The translations under genes were made by a program, and so were the position numbers. From the sequence record SRR20825006_2477: DNA of 51,806 nt. One strand, 5' to 3'. Below the pieces are notes generated by a model that was not told the DNA's origin, ran no database searches, and saw nothing but the letters and a program-made list of their open reading frames with translations. Of the stretch, positions 1,877 through 22,716 are shown piece after piece (within the stretch, counting starts at the first letter, position 1; each line of letters starts with the position of its first letter).

Positions 1877-2857
1877 TTACTTCGTGTTTTTTATTTTGGA
1901 TGGAAGCACTTTGTAGTATTTTTTAAAGGTCGAAGTAAAATAAGAGATACTTTGATAACCCAGTATCGAAGCTGTTTCGGAAATGGTATTTGTTTTTAAA
2001 AGCTCAAAAGCTTTCTTCATTTTCAATTCAATAATATAAGCGCGAATGGTTTTTCCGTAGGTGCTTTTAAATTCCTTTTTCAGTTGCATTTCATTCAGCA
2101 TAACGTGTCTTGAAACCTGCTGAATAGTGGGAGTGTCTAAATAATGGTGTTCAATATAATTTAATGCTTTTGTGATTCTAGCTTGAATTCCAGTATGCGC
2201 AGCAGCATTTTCATCATCATAAAGCAAGCTGTCATTTTGATAGACACGAAGAAGCAACTCTCGCAATTTAAGGCCTACAAGGTGTTTAGGTATTCTTGAA
2301 GATGCGGTAGATTGAATGATCCCAAGTATCGTTTTCTGAATGCTATGCGTAACCTGAACATCATTGGCGCGTACAGAAGTAAGACCTATGTCATTGTTGA
2401 TTAACGTATAAATAGAATTATTGTCTTTCCACTCTTCGTGCTTTAATAAATTGATCAGGTAAGAAGACCTGAGGTAAATTAAAATAGATTCTGTGGTGCA
2501 ATTGGCAGGAGTAATGACTTGATTATTGGTTTGCTGAGCAAAGACTATTCTCAGTTTGTCATTGTCTAAAAGGTATCTAAATGCCGGTTGATTGATCTCA
2601 AGTTCACCACTAATTAAATAGGCGATAAGTACAAAGGAGCCTTCCACATTAACCTGTTCGATCAAGTCCTTTTTACAGTTACGCTTGTTATGTATTATAA
2701 CTATGTCCTTGTTAAAATGAATAGTGCTGTCAACGGTATAATCTTGATTTTTAAAGGCCACCTCTTTGAACTCTAAGTAGTCAGATTGTGGAAAGGTGTC
2801 TAGATCAAAGTGATAAAACTCTTTGTTTAAGTCGGGATACGTTGAATATAACCTCAT
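1877..2857 (-). CDS. AraC-family transcriptional regulator (module 1)
   Basis: C-terminal double HTH (LKKEFKSTYGKTI...LGYQSISYFTSTFKKYY). Start moved from TTG 2905 to ATG 2857, giving 326 aa versus 325 aa for the paralog, with the same upstream motif. Confidence 0.88.
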   Translation of the reverse strand: MRLYSTYPDLNKEFYHFDLDTFPQSDYLEFKEVAFKNQDYTVDSTIHFNKDIVIIHNKRNCKKDLIEQVNVEGSFVLIAYLISGELEINQPAFRYLLDNDKLRIVFAQQTNNQVITPANCTTESILIYLRSSYLINLLKHEEWKDNNSIYTLINNDIGLTSVRANDVQVTHSIQKTILGIIQSTASSRIPKHLVGLKLRELLLRVYQNDSLLYDDENAAAHTGIQARITKALNYIEHHYLDTPTIQQVSRHVMLNEMQLKKEFKSTYGKTIRAYIIELKMKKAFELLKTNTISETASILGYQSISYFTSTFKKYYKVLPSKIKNTK

Positions 2858-2862
2858 AATTC

Positions 2863-2885
2863 CGTTTACCGTTAATTTGATTCCC
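2863..2885. promoter_or_regulatory. Conserved 23-bp motif, putative AraC operator (copy 1)
   Basis: CGTTTACCGTTAATTTGATTCCC; 19/23 identical to 13789-13811 in the paralogous intergenic region. Confidence 0.55.
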
Positions 2886-2926
2886 GATTCTATTGATGTG
2901 ATCAAGTTTCAACAAGGAAATTTGCG

Positions 2927-2934
2927 CAAATATA
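2927..2934 (-). promoter_or_regulatory. Bacteroidota -7 promoter element for the AraC gene
   Basis: TATATTTG on the minus strand matches TAnnTTTG. Confidence 0.5.
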
Positions 2935-2955
2935 ATTTAGAATTAAATTAAATAA
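2933..2955. promoter_or_regulatory. Putative iron-repressor (Fur-like) box 1
   Basis: TAATTTAGA-ATTAA-ATTAAATAA, an imperfect 9-5-9 palindrome that recurs before all three TonB receptors of the cluster. Confidence 0.6.
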
Positions 2956-2958
2956 AAA

Positions 2959-5355
2959 TTGTTTAAAACACTACTTCAATCCTGTTTGTTTTTGAGCCTT
3001 TTAGTATGCAGTACACTAGGTTACAGTCAAGAACGCTACAGTATCTCGGGTAAACTATCTGATCAAGCCGGAGCCCCTTTGACTGATGCGTATATCTATT
3101 TAGAGCATACGCAAATTTACACGATGACTAATCAAGCTGGTGAATTTAAGCTAAGCGCACCAACAGGTACATACCAGCTGGTTTGTTCTTTAATGGGATA
3201 TGAAAAAAAGACCATCTCGATTGAGTTGCACAACGATCTAAACGTAGCTTACAAATTGGGCCCAGATCGTGAGATGCAGCTTGATGAAGTACAAATAAAA
3301 GGAAAATCAGTTATTGAGAAGGTCAGAGAATCGGCTTATAATGTTGTGGCTGTAGATGCTCAGGCTATGACCAATACAACGGCCGATCTTTCAAATGCGC
3401 TGGAGCAAGCTTCCGGAGTCAAAGTACGACGTTCTGGCGGATTGGGTTCTAGGGCCTCAATTTCGTTAAACGGATTTACAGGACGCCGGGTTAAACTTTT
3501 TATGGACGGTGTGCCTATGGAAGGTTTTGGAGATGCTTTTCAGCTCAATAACATACCGGTATCCATCGCAGATCGTATTGAAGTTTATAAAGGGGTGGTT
3601 CCTATTGAATTTGGTACAGACGCTATGGGCGGGGTCATAAATATAGTGACCAACCAGCGCTCAAATACTTTTGTAGACGCTTCCTATGCTTTTGGTTCCT
3701 TTAATACGCATCGTGCCAGTGTAAGTACAGGCTTTACCTCTAAAAATGGGTTTTCTGTTTTAGTAAATGGTTTTCTTAATTATTCAGATAATAATTATAA
3801 AGTACATCTTGATAAGATGCTGGATGTGAATACAGGTACATACGTCGCCGGGGATTATGAAGTAGAGCGCTTTCACGATACGTATCAAAACAAAACGGTT
3901 ATGGCTAAGGCCGGATTTGTAAAAAAATGGTGGGCAGATCGTTTTTTTGTTGGTCTTACTGTAGGGGAGCTGGAAGCTGATGTTCAAAATGCTTATACTA
4001 TGGAAATCGTTTATGGTGCGCGTACAAGGGCATCAAAAACCTTGTTGCCGTCCCTGGAATATTATAAACGAAATTTTTTAACCAAAAACCTTACCGCCAG
4101 AGTCACCGCAAATTATAACCATAATGCTAATAAAAGTATAGATACCGTTGCGCGTCTTTACAATTGGTATGGTGATTATGCTACTACAAGAACAAGAGGA
4201 GAGAGCGGTACCAACACGCTTTCAGAATTCAAAGATAATAATGTATCAGCGACAGCAAATTTGTCTTATGACATAAACAAAAAACACTCTATAAAGCTCA
4301 ACGATGTCATCACGGGCTATGAGCGTAAATTATCAAGCGATGTACCGTTAGACCAGCTGACCTCTGCTACAGATACGATGCGCAGAGCGTCTAGAAAAAA
4401 TGTGATAGGACTTTCTTATGGGTATCGCCCTTCTAAAAAATGGAACGTCAACTTCTTCGGGAAACACTACTACCAATATGTTGTGGGGCCGGTTGATACC
4501 GTTACCGTAGGCAATAACAGTCAGTATGAAGAGCAAGAGCGTTCCTTTCAAACATCAGGTTACGGGCTGGCAGCTACCTATTTCTTTAATAATGCAATTC
4601 AGTTAAAAGCTTCAGCAGAACGGGCTTATAATTTACCTTCTGCGCAACAGCTCTTTGGCGACGAGGTACTCAATACAGCCAACACAAGCTTAAAAGCTGA
4701 AAACTCATCTAATTTCAATCTTGGCGTTTCTTCAAATAGTAGATTGAAAAATGACGATGTGTTATATGTAGATGTTAATGGTTATTACCGCTTAACAAAA
4801 GACTTTATTCAGCGGGTGCAAAGTGCACGATATGGAACGGTAGGAAATGTGAATTTTGGGCGTGTTAGAAATATTGGAGCTGACGCAGAAGTACGCTATT
4901 ATCATAAAAATAAGGTGATGGTAGGCGGTACCCTTACCTATATGGATTTGCGTAACCGGGAGCAAATACGAGATGCATCCTCTTCAGTAACATCTTCAAC
5001 TTACAATAACAGGATGCCCAATATTCCGTACTTCTTTGGTAACGCCGATGCCGCTTATTACGTACACGATATTTTCGGTAAGAATAATGTATTGAGTTTA
5101 AACTACAATTTTAATTATGTAGGTGAATTCTATCTACTATGGGAAAGCCAAGGAAGTAGTAATACCAAAGCAACCCTACCAGAACAAGTTTATCATGACT
5201 TTTCGGTGAACCTTTCCTTAGCAAAAGGAACGTACAACATCACGTTAGAGGCACTCAATTTTACAGATGCCAGGCTTTATGACAATTTCAGTCTGCAAAA
5301 ACCGGGAAGAGCATTTAACGTGAAGTTCAGATACTATTGGAACAGAAGAAAATAA
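2959..5355 (+). CDS. TonB-dependent receptor (XusA-like, module 1)
   Basis: Signal peptide, N-terminal carboxypeptidase-regulatory-like domain, plug motif DRIEVYKG...GGVINIVT, barrel ending LYDNFSLQKPGR..VKFRY. Confidence 0.92.
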   Translation: MFKTLLQSCLFLSLLVCSTLGYSQERYSISGKLSDQAGAPLTDAYIYLEHTQIYTMTNQAGEFKLSAPTGTYQLVCSLMGYEKKTISIELHNDLNVAYKLGPDREMQLDEVQIKGKSVIEKVRESAYNVVAVDAQAMTNTTADLSNALEQASGVKVRRSGGLGSRASISLNGFTGRRVKLFMDGVPMEGFGDAFQLNNIPVSIADRIEVYKGVVPIEFGTDAMGGVINIVTNQRSNTFVDASYAFGSFNTHRASVSTGFTSKNGFSVLVNGFLNYSDNNYKVHLDKMLDVNTGTYVAGDYEVERFHDTYQNKTVMAKAGFVKKWWADRFFVGLTVGELEADVQNAYTMEIVYGARTRASKTLLPSLEYYKRNFLTKNLTARVTANYNHNANKSIDTVARLYNWYGDYATTRTRGESGTNTLSEFKDNNVSATANLSYDINKKHSIKLNDVITGYERKLSSDVPLDQLTSATDTMRRASRKNVIGLSYGYRPSKKWNVNFFGKHYYQYVVGPVDTVTVGNNSQYEEQERSFQTSGYGLAATYFFNNAIQLKASAERAYNLPSAQQLFGDEVLNTANTSLKAENSSNFNLGVSSNSRLKNDDVLYVDVNGYYRLTKDFIQRVQSARYGTVGNVNFGRVRNIGADAEVRYYHKNKVMVGGTLTYMDLRNREQIRDASSSVTSSTYNNRMPNIPYFFGNADAAYYVHDIFGKNNVLSLNYNFNYVGEFYLLWESQGSSNTKATLPEQVYHDFSVNLSLAKGTYNITLEALNFTDARLYDNFSLQKPGRAFNVKFRYYWNRRK

Positions 5356-5385
5356 AATCATTTAATTCAAACAACAACAAAAATC

Positions 5386-6615
5386 ATGAATATCAATTTT
5401 AAAACAAGCACTTTAGGATTACTCCTAGCGGGAGCACTACTCACAGGGTGCAGTAACGATGATAGCAGTACCGAAGAACCAACAGAACCAGAAGTGAATC
5501 TTGAAGCCAAGTATTTTATAGCTGCAGAAAATGATAACGGTACTTATTTCTTAACTGAAGAATCGCTTAACTCAGGAACAACTACCACTACCGGAAATGG
5601 TATCGAGGATCCTAATTCGTACACTCATTATTCATATAATGGCAATGAGGCTGTTATGGGATTATGGTATCGTCAGGGAAATCCGGCGATTGGAGTAATG
5701 TATGGTTTAGATGCTTCAGGAACTTTAACTGAAATCGGTGCCGGTTTTCAGATGACTAACGGTTATTCATCAGTAGGTCCATTCGAAAACTACATTGTAG
5801 CAACCCGTGGAGGCATTACATTTGACGATGGTAGTGTAGGGCAAAACTTTTACTTTATAGATCTTGATAATAATGCCACAGTATCATCAAAGCAATTAAC
5901 TACGCTTGATCTTGTGGGTAATGGTCTAGAATGTAATCTGGTAGGCGTTGTAGACGCTGGAGATGGTTCTTTTCTTTCTGCTGTAGAGGTTCAAGACGGG
6001 GATGTAGATACCTGCTACATTGTTAAATTAGATGCAGATGCTACTGTGCTCAATATTTTAGAAGATGATCGTATAGGTCAAGCACTGGGGCAGTGGCGTT
6101 CTGCGCGCTACTCGCTTATCGCAAATGATGATGAAGGAAACACTTATGTTTTTGGAAATCCTAATGGAGGGACACTAAAAGGAGGAGCATTAAAAATTCC
6201 ACAAGGAAGCACTTCTTTTGATTCAAGTTACTATTTCAATATTCAGGATCAAGCAGATGGTTATGCTTTTAGAAAGGTTTATCACGTTACCGGAAAGTAC
6301 TTTTTACTAGAATTTTACAATGAGTATGAGCCGGGCAACGGTACAGCAGCTACCAAATATGGAATCGTAAATGTAGAAACTCAAAGTTTTTCTTGGATTA
6401 CCGGTCTTCCTAGTACAGATAATATCAACGATGTGGGCTGGCCCTATGCAAGTGATGATGTGGTGTATATACCTATTACTACTGCAGATGCAAGCCCAAC
6501 AGTATATGTTGTTAATCCCGTAACAGCATCAGCTACAGCAGGTATTATAGTAGAGTCTGCTACCGCTATTGGTGGTTTAGCAAAACTTGAATACGAACCG
6601 GAAACTACTAATTAA
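5386..6615 (+). CDS. DUF4374-type surface lipoprotein (XusB-like, module 1)
   Basis: Lipobox LTGC followed by acidic SNDD; motifs EDDRIG, FDSSYYFNI, FSWITGLP; directly downstream of the receptor. Confidence 0.75.
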   Translation: MNINFKTSTLGLLLAGALLTGCSNDDSSTEEPTEPEVNLEAKYFIAAENDNGTYFLTEESLNSGTTTTTGNGIEDPNSYTHYSYNGNEAVMGLWYRQGNPAIGVMYGLDASGTLTEIGAGFQMTNGYSSVGPFENYIVATRGGITFDDGSVGQNFYFIDLDNNATVSSKQLTTLDLVGNGLECNLVGVVDAGDGSFLSAVEVQDGDVDTCYIVKLDADATVLNILEDDRIGQALGQWRSARYSLIANDDEGNTYVFGNPNGGTLKGGALKIPQGSTSFDSSYYFNIQDQADGYAFRKVYHVTGKYFLLEFYNEYEPGNGTAATKYGIVNVETQSFSWITGLPSTDNINDVGWPYASDDVVYIPITTADASPTVYVVNPVTASATAGIIVESATAIGGLAKLEYEPETTN

Positions 6616-6623
6616 TGGCATCC

Positions 6624-6653
6624 AAGCCCAGACGTGTATACGTCTGGGCTTTT
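6624..6653 (+). terminator. Intra-operon hairpin/terminator after DUF4374 gene
   Basis: Perfect 12-bp stem AAGCCCAGACGT-gtat-ACGTCTGGGCTT plus a short T run. Confidence 0.7.
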
Positions 6654-6669
6654 ATAATTCTTATTAAGT

Positions 6670-8187
6670 ATGAAACAAAGAATAACCTTTTTATTTATTG
6701 TGCTGGGTGTACTAGGAAGTAGCTTTGCGCAATCTACGGTTTTAGCAACTGACACATTTTGGGAGTCAGATCCTGACTTAAACGCAGTAAAAGCAGAAGT
6801 CAAAAAGGGATTTGATTTTGCAAATATGGGGATCAGCGATGACCCAATAATGCTTGCCATACGCAATGAAGCAGATCTAAATATAATCACATATCTCTTA
6901 GAACAACCGGATGTTGATATTGATAAACTGGTTTTTGAAGGAAGACACTATTTGCATATCGCTGCAAACGATGGTAACGATCAATTGGTAGATTATTTGT
7001 TAGAAAATGGTTCTGACATTGATTTCTTAGATGCTAACGGGCATACCGCATTTACATTTGCCGGTTTTCAAGGCCACTTAACCAAAGTTATGATAGACGT
7101 GTTCATCAAACATGGTATAGACTTGAATAAAAAATATCCGGAAAAGGATGGTGCCAATATCCTGCTCATATCTATTCCCTATGACAAAGATTTGACTATT
7201 ACAGATTATTTAGTCTCTAAAGGAGTTTCTATCAATTCTGTGGATGATGAGGGGAATACGGCTTTCAATCACGCTGCAAAAATAGGTAGTGTACCTATGA
7301 TGAAAACGCTTCTAGAACGCGGGGTAACCTATACAGATGAAGCGCTCTTAATCGCATCACAAGGAACTTACAGGTCTGCAAATGATATCGACGTTTATTA
7401 CTATTTAGTAGATGATCTAGGTATTAGTCCAACACTTACGAGTGAGCAGGGACTAAACGTATTGCACGCAATTGCTAAGAAAAACGATCAGGATGAGGTG
7501 ATCAACTATTTTCTATCAAAAGGGGTTGATGTCAATCAACAGGATGAAGATGGGAACACTCCATTTTTAAATGCCGCAGGTGGGCGAAGTTTTAAAGCAG
7601 TAGAATTAATGTTTCCTTATTTGGCTGAAGGCGCGGTAAACGCAACTAACGCACAGGGACAAACTGCATTGATGCTTGCTGCAGGTTCTAATGCGCCCGA
7701 AGCAGTTTCATTTTTACTAGAAAATGGCGCTGAAGTAGCACTGAAGGATGAAAGGGGTAATGATGCCGGATTTTACCTTATAGACTCCTATAGAGCGCCA
7801 AGAAGGGGAAGAGGTCCCGCGACCGAAAGTAACGCACAAAACCCTGTTGAAGCAAAACTGAAAACCTTACTAGCTGCGGGTTACGCTGTTAATACCCTGC
7901 AAGAAGAAAACAACAGTTTGCTACATCTCGCTGCTGAGAAAAACGAATTAACACTAGTTAAGCCGTTGGTTGAAAACGGAATTGACCTAAATGTTGTTAA
8001 CGATAACGGAAACACAGCATTGCACATCGCAGCGATGAAGGCTGAAAATGAAAAGATTTTAGCATTACTAGTTAAGGCTGGTGCTGATACGTCAATAGAG
8101 ACACAGTTTGGAGAAACAGCCTATGACCTTGCTGGTGAAAATGAAGCTATATCAGGTAAAGCCGAAAAACTATCTTTTTTAAAATAA
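6670..8187 (+). CDS. Secreted ankyrin-repeat protein (module 1)
   Basis: Sec signal (SSFA-Q); many ankyrin repeats (GRHYLHIAA, GNTAFNHAA, GQTALMLAA, GNTALHIAA). Confidence 0.9.
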   Translation: MKQRITFLFIVLGVLGSSFAQSTVLATDTFWESDPDLNAVKAEVKKGFDFANMGISDDPIMLAIRNEADLNIITYLLEQPDVDIDKLVFEGRHYLHIAANDGNDQLVDYLLENGSDIDFLDANGHTAFTFAGFQGHLTKVMIDVFIKHGIDLNKKYPEKDGANILLISIPYDKDLTITDYLVSKGVSINSVDDEGNTAFNHAAKIGSVPMMKTLLERGVTYTDEALLIASQGTYRSANDIDVYYYLVDDLGISPTLTSEQGLNVLHAIAKKNDQDEVINYFLSKGVDVNQQDEDGNTPFLNAAGGRSFKAVELMFPYLAEGAVNATNAQGQTALMLAAGSNAPEAVSFLLENGAEVALKDERGNDAGFYLIDSYRAPRRGRGPATESNAQNPVEAKLKTLLAAGYAVNTLQEENNSLLHLAAEKNELTLVKPLVENGIDLNVVNDNGNTALHIAAMKAENEKILALLVKAGADTSIETQFGETAYDLAGENEAISGKAEKLSFLK

Positions 8188-8189
8188 CG

Positions 8190-8699
8190 ATGCTACAACA
8201 AAGAATGAAGATGAAAAGAATTTTGTGTTGCCTCGTTGCGGTACTTGTGCTAGGTGCTACCCAAGGCTGGAGATCAAAATCAGATGAGCAACTTAAGTTA
8301 AAATGTTTGATCCAATTGACTAATTATTCAGGTGAAGGTGCGTATATGGCAGCATCTCTAATCGACCAGAATGGGACATATGAGCAAACACTTTATGTGA
8401 TGGGTCAAGATGAAAAATGGTATAACGAACTCGTAAGTTGGTTTTCATTTTTTGAAAAGAAAAAAGAAGCGGTAGATGCTATTAGTGGAGCCACTATTGC
8501 TGGAGGCGAGCGCACTATTTGTGTTCTTGAAATACCTAAAGAAAAACTGGATAAGGGATACAAGCTGCGCTTTGAAACCTCTGTAGAAAGTCAGAAATAT
8601 TATGAAAACGATGTTGAGGTAGCACTCACTTCAAGCACAATTAAAGGAAACTACGAAGGTACAGGTTACATTCGCTATGTGCGATTAATCCCTAATTAG
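8190..8699 (+). CDS. DUF2271 family exported protein with DAISGAT flavinylation motif (module 1)
   Basis: Signal-like N-terminus (start could be 8205/8211); NYSGEGAY, Y..TL.V.G...KWY, VDAISGAT, GYKLRFET.VE. Confidence 0.75.
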   Translation: MLQQRMKMKRILCCLVAVLVLGATQGWRSKSDEQLKLKCLIQLTNYSGEGAYMAASLIDQNGTYEQTLYVMGQDEKWYNELVSWFSFFEKKKEAVDAISGATIAGGERTICVLEIPKEKLDKGYKLRFETSVESQKYYENDVEVALTSSTIKGNYEGTGYIRYVRLIPN

Positions 8700-9870: not shown

Positions 9871-9895
9871 ATAGTTTATCAGTTTTTAAGAAATT

Positions 9896-9903
9896 CAAAA
9901 TTA
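9896..9903 (-). promoter_or_regulatory. -7 promoter element for the DUF6607-like gene
   Basis: TAATTTTG on the minus strand, 26 nt upstream of the ATG. Confidence 0.5.
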
Positions 9904-9913
9904 ATCATTTTTA

Positions 9914-9936: not shown

Positions 9937-9940
9937 AATA

Positions 9941-9948: not shown

Positions 9949-9967
9949 CTGCGGAAAATAATTAAGA

Positions 9968-13911: not shown

Positions 13912-16266
13912 GTGAAGCAATTTTATTTTTTTAGCATCCTTCTGCTGTCAAGTGTTTGGGCATTTGGGCAAAGCACAAAAGCAACGTTAAAGGGCCACGT
14001 GTCCAATACTACTGGAGAGAAGCTACCGGAAACTTACATTTATATAAAAGGGACAACTACCTACACGATGGCCGATGCCAACGGAGATTACCGTTTGCGT
14101 ATCGCGCCGGGAACCTATGAGCTTACAGTGAGTTTGATGGGATATTTAGACCAGACGCAAAACATTACCCTAAGCGCTGCGGAAACCAAAACCTTAAACA
14201 TTCAGCTTGAAGAAGATCCTGAGATGACTTTAGATGATGTTTTGGTTAAGGGACGATCTGCCATACGTGATGTTCAGGAGTCTTCTTATAATGTGGTAGC
14301 TTTAGACGCAGAGCCTTTACACAATACCACACTAGATGTTTCTCAAGCCCTTGAGCGCGTGTCTGGAGTACGTGTGCGTAGAACCGGTGGTGTGGGATCT
14401 GACTATAATGTGATGCTGAATGGTTTCACCGGAAGACACGTAAAATTCTTTATTGACGGAATCCCGATGGAAGGCTTTAGTTCAGCATTTCAACTGAATA
14501 ATATTCCTATAAATCTTGCTAAGCGTATAGAAGTGTATAAAGGAGTTGTGCCCATTACTTTTGGGTCTGATGCTTTAGGTGGTGCGATCAATATTGTTAC
14601 CGAAAATGGGAAACAAAACTTTGTTGACGCTTCGTATTCCTTCGGAAGCTTTAATACTCATAAGTCGTTTGTAAACGCGGCATATACCGCAGACTCCGGA
14701 TTTACCGCGCGTTTGACGGCTTTTCAAAACTATTCTGATAACGATTATAAGGTGACCACAGAGATCGTTGACCTTGAAACTTCGCAGTTTACGGGAGATG
14801 TTCGCGAGGTACGCCGTTTTCACGATATGTATCGCAATTACACGGTAATGGCTAAAGTAGGGGTGGTCAATACGTCGTATGCAGACGAATTATTACTGGG
14901 CTTTACCTACGGGGACGAGTACGATGAGCAACAGCATCCGGCTTATATGAAAATAGCCTTTGGCCAGCGCTACGGAACTTCAGAAACTTTGATGCCTACC
15001 TTATCGTATAGAAAGCGCAATTTGTTTACTGAGAATTTAAACGTTTCGCTGACGGCTAATTATAATTTTGGGGAGAGTTCAAATATTGATGATTCTTACC
15101 GAAGATACAACTGGCTGGGCGAGTTTATTGAGACCGATGCTCCGGGAGAATTCAATTATGCTAAAACCTATTTCAGAAACCGAAATGGTTCGGCAAATGC
15201 CAATGTTACTTATACATTGGCCGAAAAACACGCGTTTACCGTAAATAATGTACTCAATCTTTTTTCAAGAAAAAGCAGAAACGAAGTAGAGCCTAGTGCT
15301 GCAGATGCTTATCCTAGCGAGACCATCAAGAATATTTTAGGAGTGGGATATAAATACCAGCCTACAGATGATTTGAGTATTTCGTCTTTTTATAAATACT
15401 ATTACAACAAGGTAAATCAATATGCAGACCCTACGGGTTCTGGGGAGTTTGAAAACCTAGGTGCTTCAACAGAAGATCACGGGTACGGCCTTGCCGCTTC
15501 GTATTTTTTATTAGAAAACCTTCAGCTTAAATCCTCTTACGAAAAAGCGTATCGCTTGCCTACGGGACGCGAACTCTTTGGCGCCGGTAATGATTTTGAA
15601 TTGGGAAATCCTGATTTAAAACCTGAAAGCAGTGACAACTTTAATTTTGGTGTAAACTACAACTGGCTGATTGCTAAAAATCATCAGTTTAATATTGATG
15701 CTAGTTTTATCTACCGTGATATTAAAGACTTTATTCGTCAAGTCCCTAACCCAACAAACGGCGTAATGCAGCCTGGCAATGAGGCTTCGGTAAAAAATAG
15801 AGGTGTAGATCTAGAAATGCGCTACAACTACGCCAGTTTATTTTCTTTAGGCGGAAGTTTTACCTATCAAAACCTTCGGAACAAATTAAAATATCGCGCC
15901 GGGAGAGATGTGGTGAGTACGATTTATAACGACCGCATCCCCAATATGCCTTACCTATACGGAAACGCAGATCTTACCTTTTACTTTAGCAAGCTATGGC
16001 AAGAGCAAGACCGCATGAATGTAAGCTATAACCTGCTTTACATTCACGAGTTTGACTACAGTTATGAAAGCTACGGCGGAATTAAAGTGCCAACACAAAT
16101 CGCACACGATCTGGCGGTAAACTACAGCCTTAAAAATGGTAAATACAACATCTCTTTAGAATGCCGAAATATTCTAAACGAAGACTTATACGACAATTTT
16201 AGCCTGCAAAAACCCGGAAGAAGCTTTGCGGTTAAGCTGAGATACTTTTTAGATAAATTCAATTAA
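13912..16266 (+). CDS. TonB-dependent receptor (XusA-like, module 2)
   Basis: Signal peptide, N-terminal extension, plug RIEVYKG...GGAINIVT, GNPDLKPE, LYDNFSLQKPGR; paralog of 2959-5355. Confidence 0.92.
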   Translation: MKQFYFFSILLLSSVWAFGQSTKATLKGHVSNTTGEKLPETYIYIKGTTTYTMADANGDYRLRIAPGTYELTVSLMGYLDQTQNITLSAAETKTLNIQLEEDPEMTLDDVLVKGRSAIRDVQESSYNVVALDAEPLHNTTLDVSQALERVSGVRVRRTGGVGSDYNVMLNGFTGRHVKFFIDGIPMEGFSSAFQLNNIPINLAKRIEVYKGVVPITFGSDALGGAINIVTENGKQNFVDASYSFGSFNTHKSFVNAAYTADSGFTARLTAFQNYSDNDYKVTTEIVDLETSQFTGDVREVRRFHDMYRNYTVMAKVGVVNTSYADELLLGFTYGDEYDEQQHPAYMKIAFGQRYGTSETLMPTLSYRKRNLFTENLNVSLTANYNFGESSNIDDSYRRYNWLGEFIETDAPGEFNYAKTYFRNRNGSANANVTYTLAEKHAFTVNNVLNLFSRKSRNEVEPSAADAYPSETIKNILGVGYKYQPTDDLSISSFYKYYYNKVNQYADPTGSGEFENLGASTEDHGYGLAASYFLLENLQLKSSYEKAYRLPTGRELFGAGNDFELGNPDLKPESSDNFNFGVNYNWLIAKNHQFNIDASFIYRDIKDFIRQVPNPTNGVMQPGNEASVKNRGVDLEMRYNYASLFSLGGSFTYQNLRNKLKYRAGRDVVSTIYNDRIPNMPYLYGNADLTFYFSKLWQEQDRMNVSYNLLYIHEFDYSYESYGGIKVPTQIAHDLAVNYSLKNGKYNISLECRNILNEDLYDNFSLQKPGRSFAVKLRYFLDKFN

Positions 16267-16278
16267 AACCAAATTTCT

Positions 16279-17538
16279 ATGAAATTCAACTTTAAACAAA
16301 CCAATAGATTTTCTTTAGCCGTGCTCGCGCTAATTAGCCTTGCTGCGTGTAGTGATGATGACACCGTGGTAGATGATGGGGGAGAAACGCCTGTAGAGAC
16401 CGGAGCACAATACCTGATCGCATCAACAGACAGTGAGAACTCTTATTTGAATACCACCAGCGATATTTCACAAGGATCAGTATCTCCTTTAGGTGGTACA
16501 GCAACTCAGGTGATTGGTACACCTTCTTGGTATTTTTATAATGATATTGCTGCGTATAGCTTTGTGTATAACCAAGGTGATCCCGGTACTACACAGTCTT
16601 TTGCGCTTAACAGTGCAGGAGAGGTAGAGGCACGAAATGAGATCAATCTTAATGTTTCTATTCAGAGTAGGGGAATTGTAGATAACCTGATGTATGTGCA
16701 GTATTCTTCTCGTAATTATGAGGAGCCGGTATCTACATTTTACACCATCAACGGCGACACTCAGGTTGTAAGCGGTCCTTATACCATTGATACCGAAGCT
16801 TTAGCCGGAAATGGCGAATATGCATATGTTACAGATGTTGCGCAATGGGGAGATTATGTTTTATTAGGCTTTAGACCTATCAAAGCAGGATCTGATGATG
16901 GCGACAGTGCATTTAATAGTGATTTTAATGATCATACCTATGTGGGAGTTTTCAATAAAGCTTTAGAACTTCAAACAGTGATCGAAGATGAAGGAAGAAC
17001 CGGTGCTGTTGCTGGTCAGTCAAGATCGCAAGGAGAAACAGGAGTAGAGCCTGTTGAAAATGGGGATGTGTATGTGTTCTCTTCGGCTATTGATGCTGAA
17101 GGTGAAGTGCCTTCTGGAGTTTTAAAAATTAACAACGGAACTTTAGCCTTTGATCAGGATTATTTCTTTGATATCACCGCAGCTTCGGGAGGTTATGCTG
17201 TATACCGCAGTTTTTATGTAGGCGAAAATACTTTTGTATTACAAATGTTCACAGAGCCAGGTTCAGGTACTGCAAGCTCAAGCGCTACGCGTAATAAGTT
17301 TGCCGTAGTGAATGTTGTAGATCAAACTTTTGAATGGGTGACCGGTATTCCTGAAGGAATCACTTCAATAGGTGCGCCTTACATTGACGAAGATAACAAC
17401 GAAGTAGCTTTTCCTATCGAAACAAACCTGTATCCAACAATCTTTATTGTCAATGCAGATACTGCAACAATGAGTGAAGGTACTGAAGTAGTTGCTGAAG
17501 GAATCAGCGCTATTGGTAAACTAACGCCACAAGAATAA
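16279..17538 (+). CDS. DUF4374-type surface lipoprotein (XusB-like, module 2)
   Basis: Lipobox LAAC-SDDD; EDEGRTG, GDVYVFS, PSGVLKI, FDQDYFFDI, FEWVTGIP. Confidence 0.78.
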   Translation: MKFNFKQTNRFSLAVLALISLAACSDDDTVVDDGGETPVETGAQYLIASTDSENSYLNTTSDISQGSVSPLGGTATQVIGTPSWYFYNDIAAYSFVYNQGDPGTTQSFALNSAGEVEARNEINLNVSIQSRGIVDNLMYVQYSSRNYEEPVSTFYTINGDTQVVSGPYTIDTEALAGNGEYAYVTDVAQWGDYVLLGFRPIKAGSDDGDSAFNSDFNDHTYVGVFNKALELQTVIEDEGRTGAVAGQSRSQGETGVEPVENGDVYVFSSAIDAEGEVPSGVLKINNGTLAFDQDYFFDITAASGGYAVYRSFYVGENTFVLQMFTEPGSGTASSSATRNKFAVVNVVDQTFEWVTGIPEGITSIGAPYIDEDNNEVAFPIETNLYPTIFIVNADTATMSEGTEVVAEGISAIGKLTPQE

Positions 17539-17565
17539 TACGTTAGTCGATTTTTAGTTTCATTC

Positions 17566-17604
17566 AGGGTCTCACTTTTAATTTTAATTGTGAGACCTTT
17601 TTTT
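17566..17604 (+). terminator. Intra-operon hairpin/terminator after DUF4374 gene (module 2)
   Basis: GGTCTCAC (17568-17575) / GTGAGACC (17590-17597) followed by T7. Confidence 0.65.
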
Positions 17605-17616
17605 AATACGAAAGTG

Positions 17617-18459
17617 ATGTGCAAATCAAAAATGGTCTTGTTCCTAGTTGGTTTTTTTATGTGTGCTTTAGGCTACAGTCAGCATCACACTGAAACCAAT
17701 AAACAGCAAATTTTTAGTAATTCTTTAAATCAAGAACGGGAACTGTGGATCAAGCTTCCTTTTAATTTTGACCCGGCGGAAGCTTATGAAGTTATGATCG
17801 TGTTAGATGCTGAAAAGTATTTTGAGCTAACAAACATGCTCGTAGACAACAGAACGCGCTACGGCAAATTAAACCCCACAATCCTAGTCGGAATTCCGAA
17901 TCCAAATATGGAGGAGCGCTCCCGCAATCTAACCTTCAGTAGGTCTTCAGTAGATCAAAAGGGAAAAGCAACAACACGCTATACAAACGAGAATTCAGGA
18001 AAAGCCGAAGCGTTTGCCGCATTTTTAAATGAGGAAGTATTAAGCTTTTTATCGCAAGAGTTTCGGGTGAAGCAGTTCGGGATCATTGGGCACTCGTTTG
18101 GAGGTTACTTTGCCTTGTATAACAGTACGCTTGAAGATAATATTTCAGAATATATTTTGATCGATCCTAGTTTGTGGTACAATAATGGCGAAGCACTTCG
18201 GCAAATCGAGACCCATATAGAGCGATTAAAAGAAAGAAACGAAATACATTTTTATCTCGCTCACGAAGATGGGATCAAAAACAACAGTACAAAAATGGGG
18301 AGTCTGGTGCGTATTTTTGACAATCATGATATCACATATACCAACTTTGTGTATCGTATTGAGAATCACGGTTCGGTAATTTTACCGGCATTGGTTGATA
18401 TTCTTAGAGATAAAGGCAAAAATATTCAGCGTACCCCTAGACATAAAATCAAAAAATAA
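17617..18459 (+). CDS. Exported alpha/beta-hydrolase, IroE/Fes-like esterase
   Basis: Signal peptide; nucleophile elbow GHSFGG, VLDA, DPSLW, C-terminal ENHGSV. Start set at ATG 17617 because the upstream GTG lies inside the hairpin. Confidence 0.8.
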   Translation: MCKSKMVLFLVGFFMCALGYSQHHTETNKQQIFSNSLNQERELWIKLPFNFDPAEAYEVMIVLDAEKYFELTNMLVDNRTRYGKLNPTILVGIPNPNMEERSRNLTFSRSSVDQKGKATTRYTNENSGKAEAFAAFLNEEVLSFLSQEFRVKQFGIIGHSFGGYFALYNSTLEDNISEYILIDPSLWYNNGEALRQIETHIERLKERNEIHFYLAHEDGIKNNSTKMGSLVRIFDNHDITYTNFVYRIENHGSVILPALVDILRDKGKNIQRTPRHKIKK

Positions 18460-18504
18460 TTAAATTTACCAACTATTTATAATTAATCTAAAAAAGAATA
18501 GATA

Positions 18505-20004
18505 ATGAAATCAGCACAACATATTTTTGGTGCTCTTATGCTTTTTGTCGGTTTAACCCTTAGTGCACAAGAGTCTAACCAATTACTTTCTCGAGATTTC
18601 TGGAGCAATAACCCGTCATTAGCAGATGTTAAGGCTTCTGTTGCTGCGGGCAATGATCCTTCAGAGCCTAACGGTAGTAATTTTGATCCGGTGGTTCTTG
18701 CAATCACTAATGATGCTCCTGTTGAGATTGTAGATTATCTTTTTGAACAAGAAGGTAATTCTGTAAATAAACTTACTCACGACGGAAGAACCTATATTTT
18801 CTGGGCAGCCTATCGCGGAAACTATCCTTTAGTAAAAAAGTTTGCTGATGCAGGCGCACAGATGGACTTAGTAGACGATCACGGTTACTCTGTATTGAAC
18901 TTTGCGGCAAATGCCGGTGTGACTGATACACAAATTTTTGATTATTTGATCGCTAAGGGTTCTGATCCTAAAACGGAAAAAAACCACAACGGCGCTAACG
19001 CACTTCTGTTAAACCTTCCAAGTCAGAAGGACTTTAAAATGGTTGAGTATTTTGAATCTAAAGGCTTATCGCTTCAAGATACTGATGATGAGGGTAATAA
19101 TGCTTTTGTTTACGCGGCACGAGCAGGAAATGTGGAGTTGATGAACAAGCTTGTGGAAAAAGGAATTGACCCTAAAGTGATCAATAAAGAAGGCGGAAAT
19201 GCAATTTTAGCAGCGGCACAAGGTACACGCAGAGGTTCTAGCCCACTTTCTGTTTTTAAATATTTAGAAGGTTTAGGTATTGATCCTAATGTTACCACGA
19301 CTTCAGGAACTAACCCACTTCATATACTTGCCGGAAGAAATAAAGATATGGACATCTTCTCTTATTTCTTAGCGCAAGGTGTTGACCCTACTGCGGTTGA
19401 TGGGGAAGGTAATACACCGCTGATGTATGCATCTATGCGTAATGACTTAGAAGTAGTAAAATTATTTGAAGCAAAAACTAAGGATATCAATCACACAAAT
19501 AAGGAAGGTGCTTCAGCTTTGAGTATGGCCGTTGCAGGAAATTCTCCTGAAGTAATTAGTTATTTGTTAGCCGAAGGTGCAGATGCAAGTATTGTTGATG
19601 AAAAAGGAAATACGTTAATGACCTACTTGGTTGACGCTTACAACCCACGTAGCGCGGCAGATTTTGATGCAAAAATGGCATTGCTTCAAAAAGAAGGTGT
19701 TGACTTTTCGTCAACTCAGAAGAATCAAGAAAATATGCTTTTGTTAGCGGTTAAGAAAAACAGTTTACCATTAACTAAAAAAGCTCTGGCTTTAGATATT
19801 GATGTGAATCAAGCTGATGCAGACGGAAGCACGCCACTTCAAATTGCAGCCTTACGCGCAGATGACACGGCGATTTTAGAATTGCTTGTGGCTAATGGTG
19901 CAGATACTACGGTGACTACTGATTTTGGCGAAAGCGTACTAGACTTAGCCAATGAAAACGAAATTTTAACCAGCAGCAAGGCGCGTTTAGATTTTCTAAA
20001 ATAA
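18505..20004 (+). CDS. Secreted ankyrin-repeat protein (module 2)
   Basis: Sec signal (LSA-Q); ankyrin repeats (GRTYIFWAA, GNNAFVYAA, GNTPLMYAS, GSTPLQIAA); paralog of 6670-8187. Confidence 0.9.
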   Translation: MKSAQHIFGALMLFVGLTLSAQESNQLLSRDFWSNNPSLADVKASVAAGNDPSEPNGSNFDPVVLAITNDAPVEIVDYLFEQEGNSVNKLTHDGRTYIFWAAYRGNYPLVKKFADAGAQMDLVDDHGYSVLNFAANAGVTDTQIFDYLIAKGSDPKTEKNHNGANALLLNLPSQKDFKMVEYFESKGLSLQDTDDEGNNAFVYAARAGNVELMNKLVEKGIDPKVINKEGGNAILAAAQGTRRGSSPLSVFKYLEGLGIDPNVTTTSGTNPLHILAGRNKDMDIFSYFLAQGVDPTAVDGEGNTPLMYASMRNDLEVVKLFEAKTKDINHTNKEGASALSMAVAGNSPEVISYLLAEGADASIVDEKGNTLMTYLVDAYNPRSAADFDAKMALLQKEGVDFSSTQKNQENMLLLAVKKNSLPLTKKALALDIDVNQADADGSTPLQIAALRADDTAILELLVANGADTTVTTDFGESVLDLANENEILTSSKARLDFLK

Positions 20005-20025
20005 GCCTGTATTTCAATCAAAATT

Positions 20026-20511
20026 ATGAGACTTAAAACTTTAATATTAGGACTGTTCTGTTTTACACTTTTTTCTTTTGTGAAAAATGATTCGGCAGAA
20101 ACTACATTCAAGTGTCTGATTCAGATCACTAATTATAGTGGTGAAGGTGCTTATGTTGTGGTGTCGCTCATCAATCCGCAGGGAGAATATGAGAAAACGC
20201 TTTTGGTGCAAGGAGATGACGAGGAGTGGTATCCTGACCTTACCGGATGGTGGGAGCAACAAAAGGTAAAAAATGAGAATATAGACGGAATCGCCGGTGC
20301 TACTGTAGGTGCTGGAGGCCGTGGCATAGGTTCCTTTAAAATTGCTCAGGATAAACTAGATAGTGGTTACAAACTGAGATTTGAGACTGCTGTTGAAGAT
20401 CAAAAGTATTATCAGGATGATCTTATGATTCCGCTTGATCAGGCAAGCCTTAACGGGAAATTTGCAGGTAAAGGATACATAAGATATGTACGATTGATGG
20501 CAAGTAATTAA
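20026..20511 (+). CDS. DUF2271 family exported protein (module 2), DGIAGAT motif
   Basis: KCLIQ.TNYSGEGAY, GYKLRFET.VE, G.GYIRYVRL shared with 8190-8699. Confidence 0.75.
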   Translation: MRLKTLILGLFCFTLFSFVKNDSAETTFKCLIQITNYSGEGAYVVVSLINPQGEYEKTLLVQGDDEEWYPDLTGWWEQQKVKNENIDGIAGATVGAGGRGIGSFKIAQDKLDSGYKLRFETAVEDQKYYQDDLMIPLDQASLNGKFAGKGYIRYVRLMASN

Positions 20512-20514
20512 TTT

Positions 20515-22716
20515 ATGATATTATCCATCTGGAGATACAGTCATTTAGTTTTGGCTGTATCTTCTTTTTTATTTATACTTCTCGCCGCGCTTACAGGTAT
20601 TGTTTTAGCCTTTGAACCTATTGATCACGCTGCTCTAAATTACAGTGAAGGTCAAAAAGATCTGCCGGTAACTCAATTGATAGATACGCTTAAGTCAACT
20701 TATGATGAAGTGCTGAGCGTAGAGATTGATGAAGCAGGTTTTGTAAAGGCTTCCGTGCTAAGTATGGATGGCGATAGCGGTGATTTTTATATCAATCCGC
20801 TAAGCGGAAAAAAAGTAGGCGAAATTGAAAAGCAAGCTGAAGTTTTTCAATTTGCCACCAGTTTGCACCGAAGCTTATTTCTTAAAAGCACCGGGCGTTT
20901 TTTTGTAGGACTGGCATCTTTCTTACTTTTTCTTATCAGCATTACCGGGTTGATTCTGATTATCAAACGTCAGCAAGGTATCAAGGCCTTCTTCAACCGA
21001 ATAATCAAAGATAATTTTTACTCCTATTATCATATTTATCTTGGCAGGTTATTGCTTCTGCCAATCATCATCATTACGCTTACCGGAGTTTATCTCTCCC
21101 TGCAACGTTTTGAGATCTTACCCAATATCGTGCTCAGTCACGATGTAGATTATGCTGCGATTACCGATGATCCGCAGCGGCCTCTTGCAGAGTTTCCAGC
21201 ATTACAAAATATTACACTCCGCGATGTGCGATACATCGAGTTTCCTTTTAGTCCTGATGTAGAAGATCCGTATAAAATAAGTCTTACCGATAAAGAAATT
21301 TTAATTAACCAAGTTACGGGTGAGATCATTAGTGAGATGCCATATCCTTTTGTGAATATGATGTCACATTATAGCACGGTCTTACACACCGGTAGAGGAA
21401 GTGTTCTGTGGTCAATAGTGCTTGCGGCGGCTTGTATAAGTATTTTGTTTTTTATCTATTCTGGATTTAAAATGACCTTTATGCGACGTAAAGGCCGTAT
21501 CAAGAATAAATTCAAAGCAGCTCAATGCGAAATCGTGATTTTGGTGGGTTCAGAGACGGGAAGTACGATGTCTTTTGCAGGATTGTTTTATAACGAATTG
21601 CTCAATAAAGGGAAAAAGGTTTTCCTAACCCAAATGGATAAGTACCAGAAGTTCCCTAAAATGGAGCATTTGGTAATTTTTACTTCGACTTATGGTGATG
21701 GCGAACCGCCGGCGAATGCTACTAAATTTATGAGCCAGCTTCAGAAAATTAACCAAAATCAAGACTTTAATTACAGCGTGGTAGGTTTTGGATCCTTAGC
21801 GTACCCTAGCTACTGTAAGTTTGCCTTTGATGTTGATGATGCTTTAAAAGCTTCGCCTGATGCTCAAGAATTGCTTGGGGTGTATACAATAAATAATAAA
21901 TCTTGGGAGGCTTTTGATCAATGGGTAGATCAATGGGGAGAACGTTTAGGACTTGCTCTTGATGTGCCACGGGATAACGCAGTTACCAAACCTCGAAAGA
22001 AGCCTAAAAAGTTTAAAGTTATTGCTAAGACCCAAGCGCAAGACAGTGCGGATGATACGTTTTTAGTAACGCTTCAGTCTGAAAAATCGTTGAAATTTAA
22101 ATCAGGAGACTTATTGGCAATTTATCCCGAAAAGGATGCGCACGAGCGCTTATATTCTATAGGAAAGAATTTAAAAGGCGAATTGCTTTTGAGTGTTAAG
22201 CGGCACGAATTCGGACTTTGTTCTAATTTCCTTAATGATCTTTCGGTGGGTTCTACCCTGAATGCTGTACGCGTTAAGAATCCGGAGTTTCACCTTAAGT
22301 CATCCCAAAAAGCAATTATGATTGCTACAGGTACCGGGATCGCACCGTTTTTAGGCATGTTTGCCGACAATCACAAAAGGAAAGAACGCATACTCTATTG
22401 GGGAGCCCGAAACGAAGCAAGTTTTGAACTCTATAAAGCGCAAATTGATACAGCAGTAGATCAAGGGCAACTTTCTAAATTCATTCCCGCATATTCCCGT
22501 GTTGGTAATGATAAAATCTACGTGCAGCACCTAATAGCAAGCGATCATCTTAGGTTTGCAAACGCGTTAAAAGATGGTGTCGTGTTGATGATCTGCGGTT
22601 CGATAAGTATGCAAAAGGAAGTGATCGCCGCACTTCAGGAAATTTGCCAAACCTATGAGTTGAAGCCGTTGAGCTACTACCAAAACCGCGATCAAGTAAA
22701 AATGGATTGTTACTAA
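20515..22716 (+). CDS. PepSY-TM domain fused to flavodoxin and FAD/NAD(P)H-binding (CysJ/PiuB-like) oxidoreductase
   Basis: Four TM helices with His motifs (YSHL, SLHRSL, YYHIYLG, VLHTG); flavodoxin GSETGST, TSTYGDGEPP, GFGS..Y; FNR RLYSI, GLCS, ATGTGIAPF, YWGARN, YVQH, ICGS. Confidence 0.88.
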   Translation: MILSIWRYSHLVLAVSSFLFILLAALTGIVLAFEPIDHAALNYSEGQKDLPVTQLIDTLKSTYDEVLSVEIDEAGFVKASVLSMDGDSGDFYINPLSGKKVGEIEKQAEVFQFATSLHRSLFLKSTGRFFVGLASFLLFLISITGLILIIKRQQGIKAFFNRIIKDNFYSYYHIYLGRLLLLPIIIITLTGVYLSLQRFEILPNIVLSHDVDYAAITDDPQRPLAEFPALQNITLRDVRYIEFPFSPDVEDPYKISLTDKEILINQVTGEIISEMPYPFVNMMSHYSTVLHTGRGSVLWSIVLAAACISILFFIYSGFKMTFMRRKGRIKNKFKAAQCEIVILVGSETGSTMSFAGLFYNELLNKGKKVFLTQMDKYQKFPKMEHLVIFTSTYGDGEPPANATKFMSQLQKINQNQDFNYSVVGFGSLAYPSYCKFAFDVDDALKASPDAQELLGVYTINNKSWEAFDQWVDQWGERLGLALDVPRDNAVTKPRKKPKKFKVIAKTQAQDSADDTFLVTLQSEKSLKFKSGDLLAIYPEKDAHERLYSIGKNLKGELLLSVKRHEFGLCSNFLNDLSVGSTLNAVRVKNPEFHLKSSQKAIMIATGTGIAPFLGMFADNHKRKERILYWGARNEASFELYKAQIDTAVDQGQLSKFIPAYSRVGNDKIYVQHLIASDHLRFANALKDGVVLMICGSISMQKEVIAALQEICQTYELKPLSYYQNRDQVKMDCY

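Follow-up and report, generated by a model that had tools for sequence, protein, structure and literature searches.

The XusABC system of Bacteroides (PDB 9GBC and 9GCY) consists of a receptor, XusA, a DUF4374 lipoprotein, XusB, and a PepSY inner-membrane protein, XusC; 9GBC is the B. thetaiotaomicron XusAB complex, and XusC is treated as a presumed siderophore reductase (PMC13142918). In Riemerella anatipestifer, haem is bound by the haemophore RhuH (dissociation constant 3.4e-11 M; PDB 8XJC), whose gene is divergent from the rhuR-rhuA pair (PMC11967795). In the PepSY-like flavinylation system (Meheust et al. 2021, eLife, PMC8238504), PepSY_TM genes cluster with genes for DUF2271 proteins, which ApbE flavinylates at the threonine of an [S/T]GA[S/T] motif. 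Genes resembling those of each system lie between positions 1877 and 22716 of SRR20825006_2477, a DNA stretch of 51,806 nt that was analysed as a whole (the window). This region is probably a Fur-controlled iron-acquisition island of a Leeuwenhoekiella-like flavobacterium; two Xus-type catecholate modules and one Rhu haem module would be served by a periplasm-facing cassette, Ank-DUF2271-PepSY/flavodoxin/FNR, which reductively releases iron and in which Ank, a secreted ankyrin-repeat protein, would act as adaptor.

Much of this scheme has precedents. The uptake and membrane-haem parts are covered by XusABC, RhuH-RhuR-RhuA and FoxB, and the electron path with its iron-assimilation reading is already known from Meheust et al. 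The chain set out in the original prediction, from NAD(P)H through flavins, PepSY haems and the flavin mononucleotide (FMN) of DUF2271 to Fe(III), is plausible and its sites are conserved, but it is a published model (PMC8238504) and not new. What is new relative to these papers is a strictly linked, Fur-controlled secreted ankyrin partner instead of DUF4198, the fusion of this partner to RhuH, and the modular attachment of the cassette to haem and siderophore systems.

Two Xus-type modules and a Rhu-type locus

Gene content of the window was taken from a listing of open reading frames (ORFs) and from Pfam scans. Both agree with the original prediction that one core order, an AraC-family regulator divergent from a TonB-dependent receptor, then lipoprotein, ankyrin protein and DUF2271 protein, occurs at 1877-8699 and again at 12808-20511. 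In copy 1, AraC-family regulator 1 (1877-2905, minus strand; Pfam HTH_18 1.6e-13, HTH_AraC and ExsA_N) is divergent from the XusA-like TonB-dependent receptor 1 (2959-5355, plus strand; CarboxypepD_reg and Plug). The receptor gene is followed on the plus strand by those for the DUF4374 (XusB-like) surface lipoprotein 1 (5386-6615; DUF4374 4.2e-51, lipobox LTGC), Ank1 (6670-8187; 505 amino acids, about 13 repeats, Ank_2 6.9e-53, signal-peptide-like N-terminus) and DUF2271_1 (8190-8699; DUF2271 1.5e-34), a predicted ApbE-flavinylated periplasmic protein whose start lies 2 nt from the Ank1 stop.

Copy 2 begins with AraC-family regulator 2 (12808-13785, minus strand; HTH_18 3.8e-17). On the plus strand it continues with receptor 2, a XusA homologue (13912-16266), DUF4374 (XusB-like) lipoprotein 2 (16279-17538; DUF4374 1.7e-46), an exported siderophore-esterase-like hydrolase (17590-18459; Esterase PF00756 1.9e-15), secreted Ank2 (18505-20004; 499 amino acids, Ank_2 5.8e-51) and DUF2271_2 (20026-20511; DUF2271 9.7e-36). 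The core order is shared by the two copies; the gene order is not identical, as had been claimed, because the esterase gene between lipoprotein and ankyrin genes is additional to copy 2. Copy 2 alone runs on, as predicted, into a PepSY_TM/flavodoxin/FNR fusion of 733 amino acids (20515-22716, plus strand; PepSY_TM 5e-32, Flavodoxin_1 1.5e-16, NAD_binding_1 1.2e-10), a predicted inner-membrane dihaem and diflavin NAD(P)H reductase. Every exported protein of both modules has a signal-peptide-like N-terminus, and a lipobox Cys is present in both DUF4374 proteins.

Each gene pair is paralogous, with BLASTP identities of 28-53%: 29% for the regulators (E 9e-40), 43% for the receptors (E 0), 28% for the DUF4374 proteins (E 1e-36), 37% for Ank1 and Ank2 (E 1e-100) and 53% for the DUF2271 proteins (E 7e-53). 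The copies are old paralogues and not a recent duplication, since Ank1 and Ank2 occupy separate deep clades of the Ank tree described below. The nearest named record is that of Leeuwenhoekiella palythoae, in which Ank1 is 96% identical and the gene order is the same (locus L002).

Hairpins are found 3' of both DUF4374 genes. The first (6627-6648, plus strand), between DUF4374_1 and Ank1, has an 8-bp G+C-rich stem and a 6-nt loop followed by CTTTTAT, and is a possible partial terminator; the second, at about 17560-17597, lies between DUF4374_2 and the following gene. These hairpins may attenuate read-through, leaving receptor and lipoprotein in excess over Ank and DUF2271.

Sequence searches of the PDB bear out the assignment of the receptor/DUF4374 pairs to the Xus type, and their reading as XusA/XusB homologues is supported by these similarities. 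Receptor 2 matches 9gbc_A, from the XusAB complex, over its full length (residues 4-779, E 3.5e-194), and DUF4374_2 matches the XusB chains 8gex, 9gcy and 9gbc_B at E 7e-22 to 1e-19. For both receptors, the highest NCBIfam score is with a myxochelin (catecholate) receptor model, under its cut-off (for receptor 1, MxcH at 449 bits against 925). The hydrolase matches BES (2qm0, 1.7e-12), an IroE-like protein (3gff, 6.8e-12) and the ferric enterobactin esterase PfeE (6gi0, 1.3e-5); it shares with these enzymes the PF00756 alpha/beta-hydrolase family, a nucleophile elbow (GHSFG) and export, suggested by its hydrophobic N-terminus, and is a putative siderophore esterase. Given the myxochelin-model scores, the XusAB matches and this trilactone-esterase-like enzyme, catecholate xenosiderophores would be the likeliest cargo of copy 2.

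The window also departs from XusABC. XusC is a plain PepSY_TM protein, whereas its counterpart in copy 2 carries a fused flavodoxin/FNR diflavin reductase and has Ank and DUF2271 beside it; copy 1 lacks a PepSY protein, and AraC regulators are present in the window. An esterase is a point of likeness, since it occurs in certain Xus operons, as noted for P. distasonis (PMC13142918). Some relatives (L094, L105 and others) hold both a plain PepSY_TM gene and the cassette; in some Flavobacterium loci (L094 and L154) a complete XusA-XusB-PepSY_TM set is followed by the cassette and then by ApbE.

The block between the copies (8980-12682) was overlooked by the original prediction and is not filler; on sequence similarity, it is probably a RhuH/RhuR/RhuA-type haem-uptake locus. 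It encodes a RhuH-type haemophore (8980-9870, minus strand; DUF6607 3.1e-110), a RhuR-like TonB-dependent receptor (9968-12046, plus strand; Plug and barrel) and a RhuA/HmuY-like lipoprotein (12053-12682, plus strand; HmuY 4.1e-8, 33.9 bits, cut-off 27). The DUF6607 protein matches the Riemerella haemophore RhuH (8xjc_A) over 283 residues (11-293, E 1.9e-88). The receptor scores 162 bits with the NCBIfam TonB-hemin model (cut-off 317) and 166 bits with TonB-B12, both sub-cut-off, and a PDB sequence search with the HmuY-like protein gave no match. The locus shares with its R. anatipestifer counterpart the DUF6607 protein, the divergent receptor and HmuY-like pair, and Fur-box-like sites in the common promoter (PMC11967795). 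It differs in its surroundings from most sampled Flavobacteriaceae, where rhuH heads an Ank-DUF2271-reductase operon; in the window, rhuH stands alone, convergent with copy 1. The main text of PMC11967795 names no genes downstream of rhuH and does not contain the word ankyrin, and a literature search for DUF6607 found nothing. In many loci (L056, L190, L191 and others; cluster c0) the HmuY-like gene beside rhuR encodes a type IX C-terminal sorting domain (Por_Secre_tail 9.4e-15); the HmuY-like protein of the window is a short lipoprotein without this domain.

The Ank-DUF2271-reductase cassette and its spread

The conserved unit is Ank, then DUF2271, then the PepSY-diflavin reductase. Full-length relatives of Ank1 (34-53% identity) are found at 56 places in 52 of 201 Flavobacteriaceae genomes; about 19 kb was fetched around 54 of these places, the nearest genome's two counterparts of the window being omitted. 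ORFs were called with our own script and labelled by BLASTP (E<=1e-6) against the window proteins, and recurrent unlabelled ORFs were passed to Pfam. Together with samples at phylum and order level and two scans of named records, this gave a pooled set of 164 Ank genes in 163 Bacteroidota loci, certain contigs of which stop within the cassette. DUF2271 directly follows Ank in 162 of these 164 non-independent cases, and the complete cassette is present in 148. The Ank and DUF2271 genes either overlap or lie a few bases apart, which fits coupled translation.

The linkage also holds in the reciprocal direction. The Pfam DUF2271 model finds 58 strong places (E<=3e-26) in the 201 Flavobacteriaceae genomes, and 55 of them are beside an Ank gene. 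The other three are a rhuH-DUF2271 pair, a receptor-DUF2271-PepSY/flavodoxin string and an ApbE-DUF2271 fusion. The fusion protein (L101, G152:C12) has 507 amino acids and comes from a genome without the Ank clade; this fused form was already recorded by Meheust et al. (PMC8238504).

Ank relatives share the signature THDxR[TI]Y[ILV][FH]W, which is carried by at least 598 confirmed relatives in the species-genome collection. The matches listed include Flavobacterium, Dyadobacter, Spirosoma, Adhaeribacter, Nibribacter, Mucilaginibacter and Chryseosolibacter, and the second scan of named records adds Riemerella, Apibacter, Arcicella and Dysgonomonas. The cassette therefore occurs in at least about 600 Bacteroidota species genomes, among them those of flavobacteria from the sea, Cytophagales from soil and plants, and Riemerella, a pathogen of ducks. 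When the phylum was sampled evenly, the Ank clade was present in 20 of 401 genomes, and in 0 of 87 from the largest family sampled.

The neighbours of the cassette vary. Immediately 5' of Ank there is RhuH in 32 of the 164 cases, a XusB-like lipoprotein, esterase, periplasmic binding protein or plain PepSY_TM gene in 43, and a receptor or HmuY-like gene in 11. Widening the interval to four genes on either side finds a receptor, RhuH, HmuY-like or XusB-like gene in 104 cases and none of these in 60; ApbE is within four genes in 90. A lipoprotein family found in the receptor/Ank interval (c10) is a remote relative of DUF4374 (hhalign probability 98.9%, E 2e-17, 389 columns), and in one locus (L088) a periplasmic binding protein of the Peripla_BP_2 kind sits between DUF4374 and Ank. 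The commonest arrangement in the Flavobacteriaceae sample is rhuA and rhuR on one strand, divergent from rhuH-Ank-DUF2271-reductase. The original prediction described a Xus core extended by Ank and a flavinylated carrier; the Xus context is real, but it is merely one of several. With these varied contexts, the cassette behaves as a module that is placed beside different iron-uptake systems or stands alone. Directly after it, four loci (L044, L064, L078 and L102) carry a string of DUF4856, imelysin, HTTM (vitamin-K-carboxylase-like) and receptor genes; imelysin, gamma-carboxylase and TonB receptor annotations appear in a table of Fur/iron-regulated Riemerella genes (PMC5609570).

Genome-wide statements refer to the nearest genome, G001 (44% of sampled words shared; Ank1 96% identical). 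It has three Ank-DUF2271 pairs. Two are those of the window, and the third has the commonest arrangement, with its own rhuH and reductase (L034). The window is in this respect a natural experiment, with three diverged Ank-DUF2271 pairs in one genus and one or two reductases.

DUF2271 proteins were described in the original prediction as substrates of ApbE, and the threonine to be modified is present in both copies. DUF2271_1 has the motif DAISGAT, which satisfies [S/T]GA[S/T]; this motif is kept in 155 of 162 related DUF2271 proteins. A PDB sequence search with DUF2271 gave no match.

The reductase resembles that of the published flavinylation system, in which the PepSY protein is fused to an NAD-binding domain in 1077 PepSY-like genes, TonB receptors lie near 231 clusters, and a role in iron reduction or assimilation is proposed (PMC8238504). 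ApbE is in the published clusters, whereas here it is beside the cassette in many relatives and absent from the window. Like CysJ- and CPR-type diflavin reductases, the window protein has a flavodoxin-like FMN domain followed by an FNR-like domain for flavin adenine dinucleotide (FAD) and NAD(P)H. All 76 of its PDB hits at E<=0.001 fall on this CPR/NOS/CysJ-type part; its score with NCBIfam cysJ (127.6 bits) is below the cut-off, and the Pfam scan reported no FAD_binding_1 connecting domain. Its RxYS (545-548) and GTGxxP (606-611) motifs are at least 95% conserved in 150 sequences, as are the transmembrane histidines H10, H118, H173 and H291.

FoxB, the PepSY-type dihaem siderophore reductase of Pseudomonas aeruginosa (PDB 7ABW, in PMC11334425), is of the same PepSY_TM family and has four histidines for two bis-His haems. 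Unlike the window reductase, it lacks a fused NAD(P)H reductase and a flavinylated partner, and it is not among the PDB sequence matches of the window protein at E<=0.001. Judging from the hydrophobic segments, the four histidines would pair in a FoxB-like manner as one cytoplasm-side and one periplasm-side haem site; the diflavin part would be cytoplasmic, as it is located after the last transmembrane helix. The nearest genome also has a stand-alone PepSY_TM gene beside a DUF4198 gene (G001:C5:556491-558865), which makes a second PepSY system separate from those of Ank.

The secreted partner differs from that of the published proteobacterial clusters, which is a frequent but non-obligatory DUF4198 protein (PMC8238504) and not a 13-repeat ankyrin protein. 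The Pfam DUF4198 model gives 29 hits over its cut-off across the 201 Flavobacteriaceae genomes, mostly on contigs other than those of Ank, and none of the 29 is at or near an Ank place; the window Pfam scan likewise found no DUF4198 protein. The word ankyrin is absent from the main texts of PMC8238504, its 2024 follow-up (PMC11334425), PMC13142918 and PMC11967795; the cluster table of Meheust et al. lay outside this comparison and may list ankyrin genes. The sole relevant find in the literature searched for an ankyrin partner, from which subscription journals were excluded, was a Riemerella RNA-sequencing table (PMC5429918).

Fur-box-like sites and iron control

Iron control of the modules is strongly supported, because Fur-box placement in the window and its relatives is joined by published Riemerella data. 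Sites were sought with the R. anatipestifer Fur box (PMC5609570, PMC10986502), ATTTAGAATTATTCTAAAT; a hit was defined as at least 15 of 19 matches. The window holds exactly five such sites, and every one is in a promoter of the region: between AraC1 and receptor 1 (2935-2953, 16/19), in the divergent rhuH/rhuR promoter (9916-9934, 15/19, and 9961-9979, 16/19), between AraC2 and receptor 2 (13860-13878, 15/19) and directly 5' of Ank2 (18475-18493, 16/19). Thirty shuffles of the window gave 0-3 sites each (mean 0.6). The site before Ank2 is likely to mark an internal iron-regulated promoter, to judge from its position and score.

A motif derived from the relatives points to the same places. In 11 of 12 rhuH-rhuR intergenic regions there is a 23-nt motif followed by a Bacteroidota -7 element; the motif starts with a half-site of the R. 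anatipestifer Fur box, and the site at 9916-9934 lies inside it. A position weight matrix (PWM) built from this motif has its four top regions in the window at 9914 (the training site), 18473, 13858 and 2933, with the rest scoring no more than 9.1. The scores of 20.0 (18473) and 18.7 (13858) are above all of 20 Markov shuffles; a score of 14.5 is not. In the loci of relatives, a Fur-box match lies within 150 nt 5' of 133 of 161 related operon heads, compared with 12 of 746 upstream regions of unrelated genes from the same loci.

Named R. anatipestifer records have the order receptor, XusB-like, Ank, DUF2271, reductase, ApbE (L192 and L193). Strain CH-1 has five consecutive genes, B739_0173-0177, whose annotations read, in order, TonB receptor, hypothetical, 'Ankyrin', 'Predicted periplasmic protein' and 'Nitric oxide synthase'; under iron limitation they change by log2 +3.3, 3.6, 2.4, 3.1 and 1.0 (PMC5429918). 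Fur binds the promoter of B739_0173, which is derepressed in a fur mutant (PMC7976709). The CH-1 genes are matched to L192/L193 through the order and annotation of the genes and not through their sequences; on this footing, the Riemerella counterpart is both iron-induced and Fur-bound, as the iron-release reading of the original prediction would have it.

Three marine studies provide RNA-library contigs that match the window at 95-99% identity. They cover rhuH, rhuR, rhuA and Ank2-DUF2271_2-reductase, with both gene junctions of the latter bridged; this is weak evidence of expression, as DNA may be present in the libraries and a contig is no proof of a single transcript. Runs X1, X2 and X5 have no cover over copy 1 or receptor 2, which is not evidence that these are silent.

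The ankyrin protein, the proposed mechanism and its alternatives

Bacterial ankyrin proteins are mostly known as effectors that are sent into eukaryotic cells. Here, a long ankyrin solenoid is the obligate, iron-regulated, predicted periplasmic partner of an electron-transfer system. The AlphaFold2 model of Ank1 (predicted local distance difference test score 93.5) is a solenoid of about 13 repeats with a low-confidence insertion at 373-392. Among 66 sequences, conservation peaks in repeat 2, at its loop and first helix (G81-A99), which carry the clade signature also present in Ank1, and in the C-terminal cap (T478, F480, E482 and N491). A sequence search for longer fused forms of Ank1 was uninformative; all 54 proteins that it returned were generic multi-ankyrin sequences of 22-29% identity, for the most part from eukaryotes.

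Fused forms were found by other means. A profile search of 1.84 billion representatives gave a 779-amino-acid protein in which a DUF6607/RhuH domain (15-286) is joined to the Ank clade (304-779) with no signal peptide where the two meet. Five clusters (at 90% identity) of such RhuH::Ank proteins, 779-785 amino acids long and mutually 54-59% identical at the junction, emerged from a second search. DUF2271 and then the reductase come after the fusion gene in three loci from metagenome-assembled genomes (MAGs), two labelled Bacteroidota and one Saprospiraceae. The fusion ties the cassette to the newly described flavobacterial haemophore; a link between the unloading of haem and that of siderophores is of interest here, as is the ankyrin component.

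The Ank tree (FastTree, 66 proteins, midpoint root) was read without support values. In it, a single large clade takes in the proteins from RhuH contexts, the third copy of the nearest genome among them. The group of Ank1 contains Xus-context proteins of a different flavobacterial genus, of a different family and of a Chitinophagaceae MAG; that of Ank2 contains a second set of Xus-context and free-standing proteins. The three paralogues of one genome are therefore sorted by the adjoining uptake system and not by host.

Both the natural fusions and the clades that follow the neighbouring uptake system suggest a protein-protein adaptor; it is more likely that Ank docks a cargo carrier than that it holds the chelate itself, as had been proposed, and the latter claim is left without support. 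No functional description of the ankyrin component was claimed to exist, and none was found in the literature searched. A more specific version, put forward tentatively, casts Ank as the subunit that docks particular cargos at a modular 'reductive unloading station' in the periplasm, with distinct Ank lineages coupling one PepSY-diflavin and DUF2271-FMN reductase either to RhuH-bound haem or to Xus-derived ferric catecholates. If this is true, reduction outside the cytoplasm frees iron in Bacteroidota both from haem or haemophore and from siderophores; this would be the first function defined for a periplasmic ankyrin solenoid in bacteria, and there would be a new route of haem-iron release.

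The reductive iron-release chain that would join these parts is plausible. NAD(P)H would reduce FAD and then FMN on the cytoplasmic C-terminal domains of the reductase, and the two bis-His haems of its PepSY_TM domain would pass the electrons across the inner membrane. In the periplasm they would be received by the DUF2271 protein, flavinylated by the genome's exported ApbE, and the Fe(III) of the imported ligand would be reduced and released for ferrous uptake. Ank, as the obligate and probably stoichiometric partner of DUF2271, would dock the flavoprotein to the cargo or its carrier, different Ank lineages being matched to different uptake systems. For want of its own reductase, copy 1 would depend on the one from copy 2 or from a third locus. 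Which way the electrons flow and where they end, the role of Ank as adaptor and the shared use of one reductase are our inferences; published work on relatives shows the flavinylation of DUF2271, the function of XusAB, the binding of haem by RhuH and the iron/Fur regulation of the Riemerella cluster (PMC8238504, PMC13142918, PMC11967795, PMC5429918, PMC7976709). The cassette is a concrete, testable route by which Bacteroidota could release iron from siderophores and haem with cytoplasmic NAD(P)H.

A number of observations weigh against this scheme. DUF2271_2 (motif DGIAGAT) has AGAT in place of [ST]GAT; the final Thr is retained, and Ala replaces the first S/T. The ORFs of the window include no ApbE, and the nearest genome has a single one, exported and with a lipoprotein signal, preceded by an ORF that is presumably NqrF. 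The absence of a reductase from copy 1 and the hairpin before Ank1 make the expression and function of this copy less sure. The nearest genome has one FecCD permease, so that some ferric ligand may be imported intact, and ankyrin repeats rarely bind small molecules. No recognised uptake gene is immediately 5' of Ank in 78 of the 164 pooled cases, nor within four genes in the 60 noted above; the cassette is often free-standing, and its substrate need not be a siderophore. Because the genomes are related, the pooled counts are not independent; at least three places were entered twice (L093/L120, L096/L140 and L184/L192), and the BLASTP labels miss divergent members.

The arrangement of cassettes behind rhuH also fits a different assignment, in which the cassette is primarily a haem system that reduces RhuH-bound ferric haem in the periplasm, for haemophore unloading or for iron release outside the cytoplasm, and its association with Xus is a secondary recruitment. 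The frequency of RhuH-headed operons in Flavobacteriaceae, the RhuH directly 5' of 32 Ank genes, the canonical third locus of the nearest genome, the RhuH::Ank fusions with DUF2271 and reductase behind them, and the tight binding of haem by RhuH (PMC11967795) all agree with it. It is nevertheless unlikely. In 43 of the 164 cases, Ank directly follows a gene of the XusB-like, esterase, binding-protein or stand-alone PepSY_TM group, and the 78 cases without a recognised neighbour do not fit it; both window Ank proteins fall in Xus-context clades. The iron-induced Riemerella cluster contains a receptor and a XusB-like gene and not RhuH (PMC5429918), and RhuH is reported to be secreted with vesicles, so that its action in the periplasm is assumed (PMC11967795).

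Less likely still is a general ferric or redox-maintenance reductase of the periplasm, keeping iron ferrous for FeoB under oxic conditions, for example, with Ank as a stabiliser or chaperone of DUF2271 that recognises no cargo. The free-standing cassettes, the one FeoB of the nearest genome, the dependence on shared parts suggested by copy 1, and the replacement by Ank of the DUF4198 protein of proteobacterial clusters would be explained by it. A simple chaperone hardly explains the RhuH fusion, and the maintenance of three diverged Ank-DUF2271 pairs in one genome, with Ank clades following the uptake system even among these paralogues, also argues for the adaptor. The notion that Ank is a passenger in two ordinary Xus-type loci, with no tie to iron release, is already disfavoured and very improbable: its NCBIfam ankyrin matches are sub-cut-off hits to unrelated effector families and a structure search with the Ank1 model yields only generic designed and eukaryotic solenoids, but adjacency to DUF2271 extends over several Bacteroidota orders, and the shared Fur boxes, the co-induction in Riemerella (PMC5429918) and the RhuH::Ank fusions all speak against it.

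Other genes of the window lie downstream of the reductase. Two adjacent ORFs encode hydrophobic proteins of 238 (22934-23650) and 244 amino acids (23812-24546) with no Pfam or NCBIfam match, and neither was noticed as a recurrent neighbour in the related loci. A Peripla_BP_2 periplasmic binding protein of siderophore/haem/B12 type (26615-27394, E 1.4e-22) stands alone after pyrF. Further along are an Nramp-family metal transporter (40166-41380) and, before it, a B12-binding/MeaB/methylmalonyl-CoA-mutase fusion of 1139 amino acids (35022-38441), which we take to be IcmF-like.

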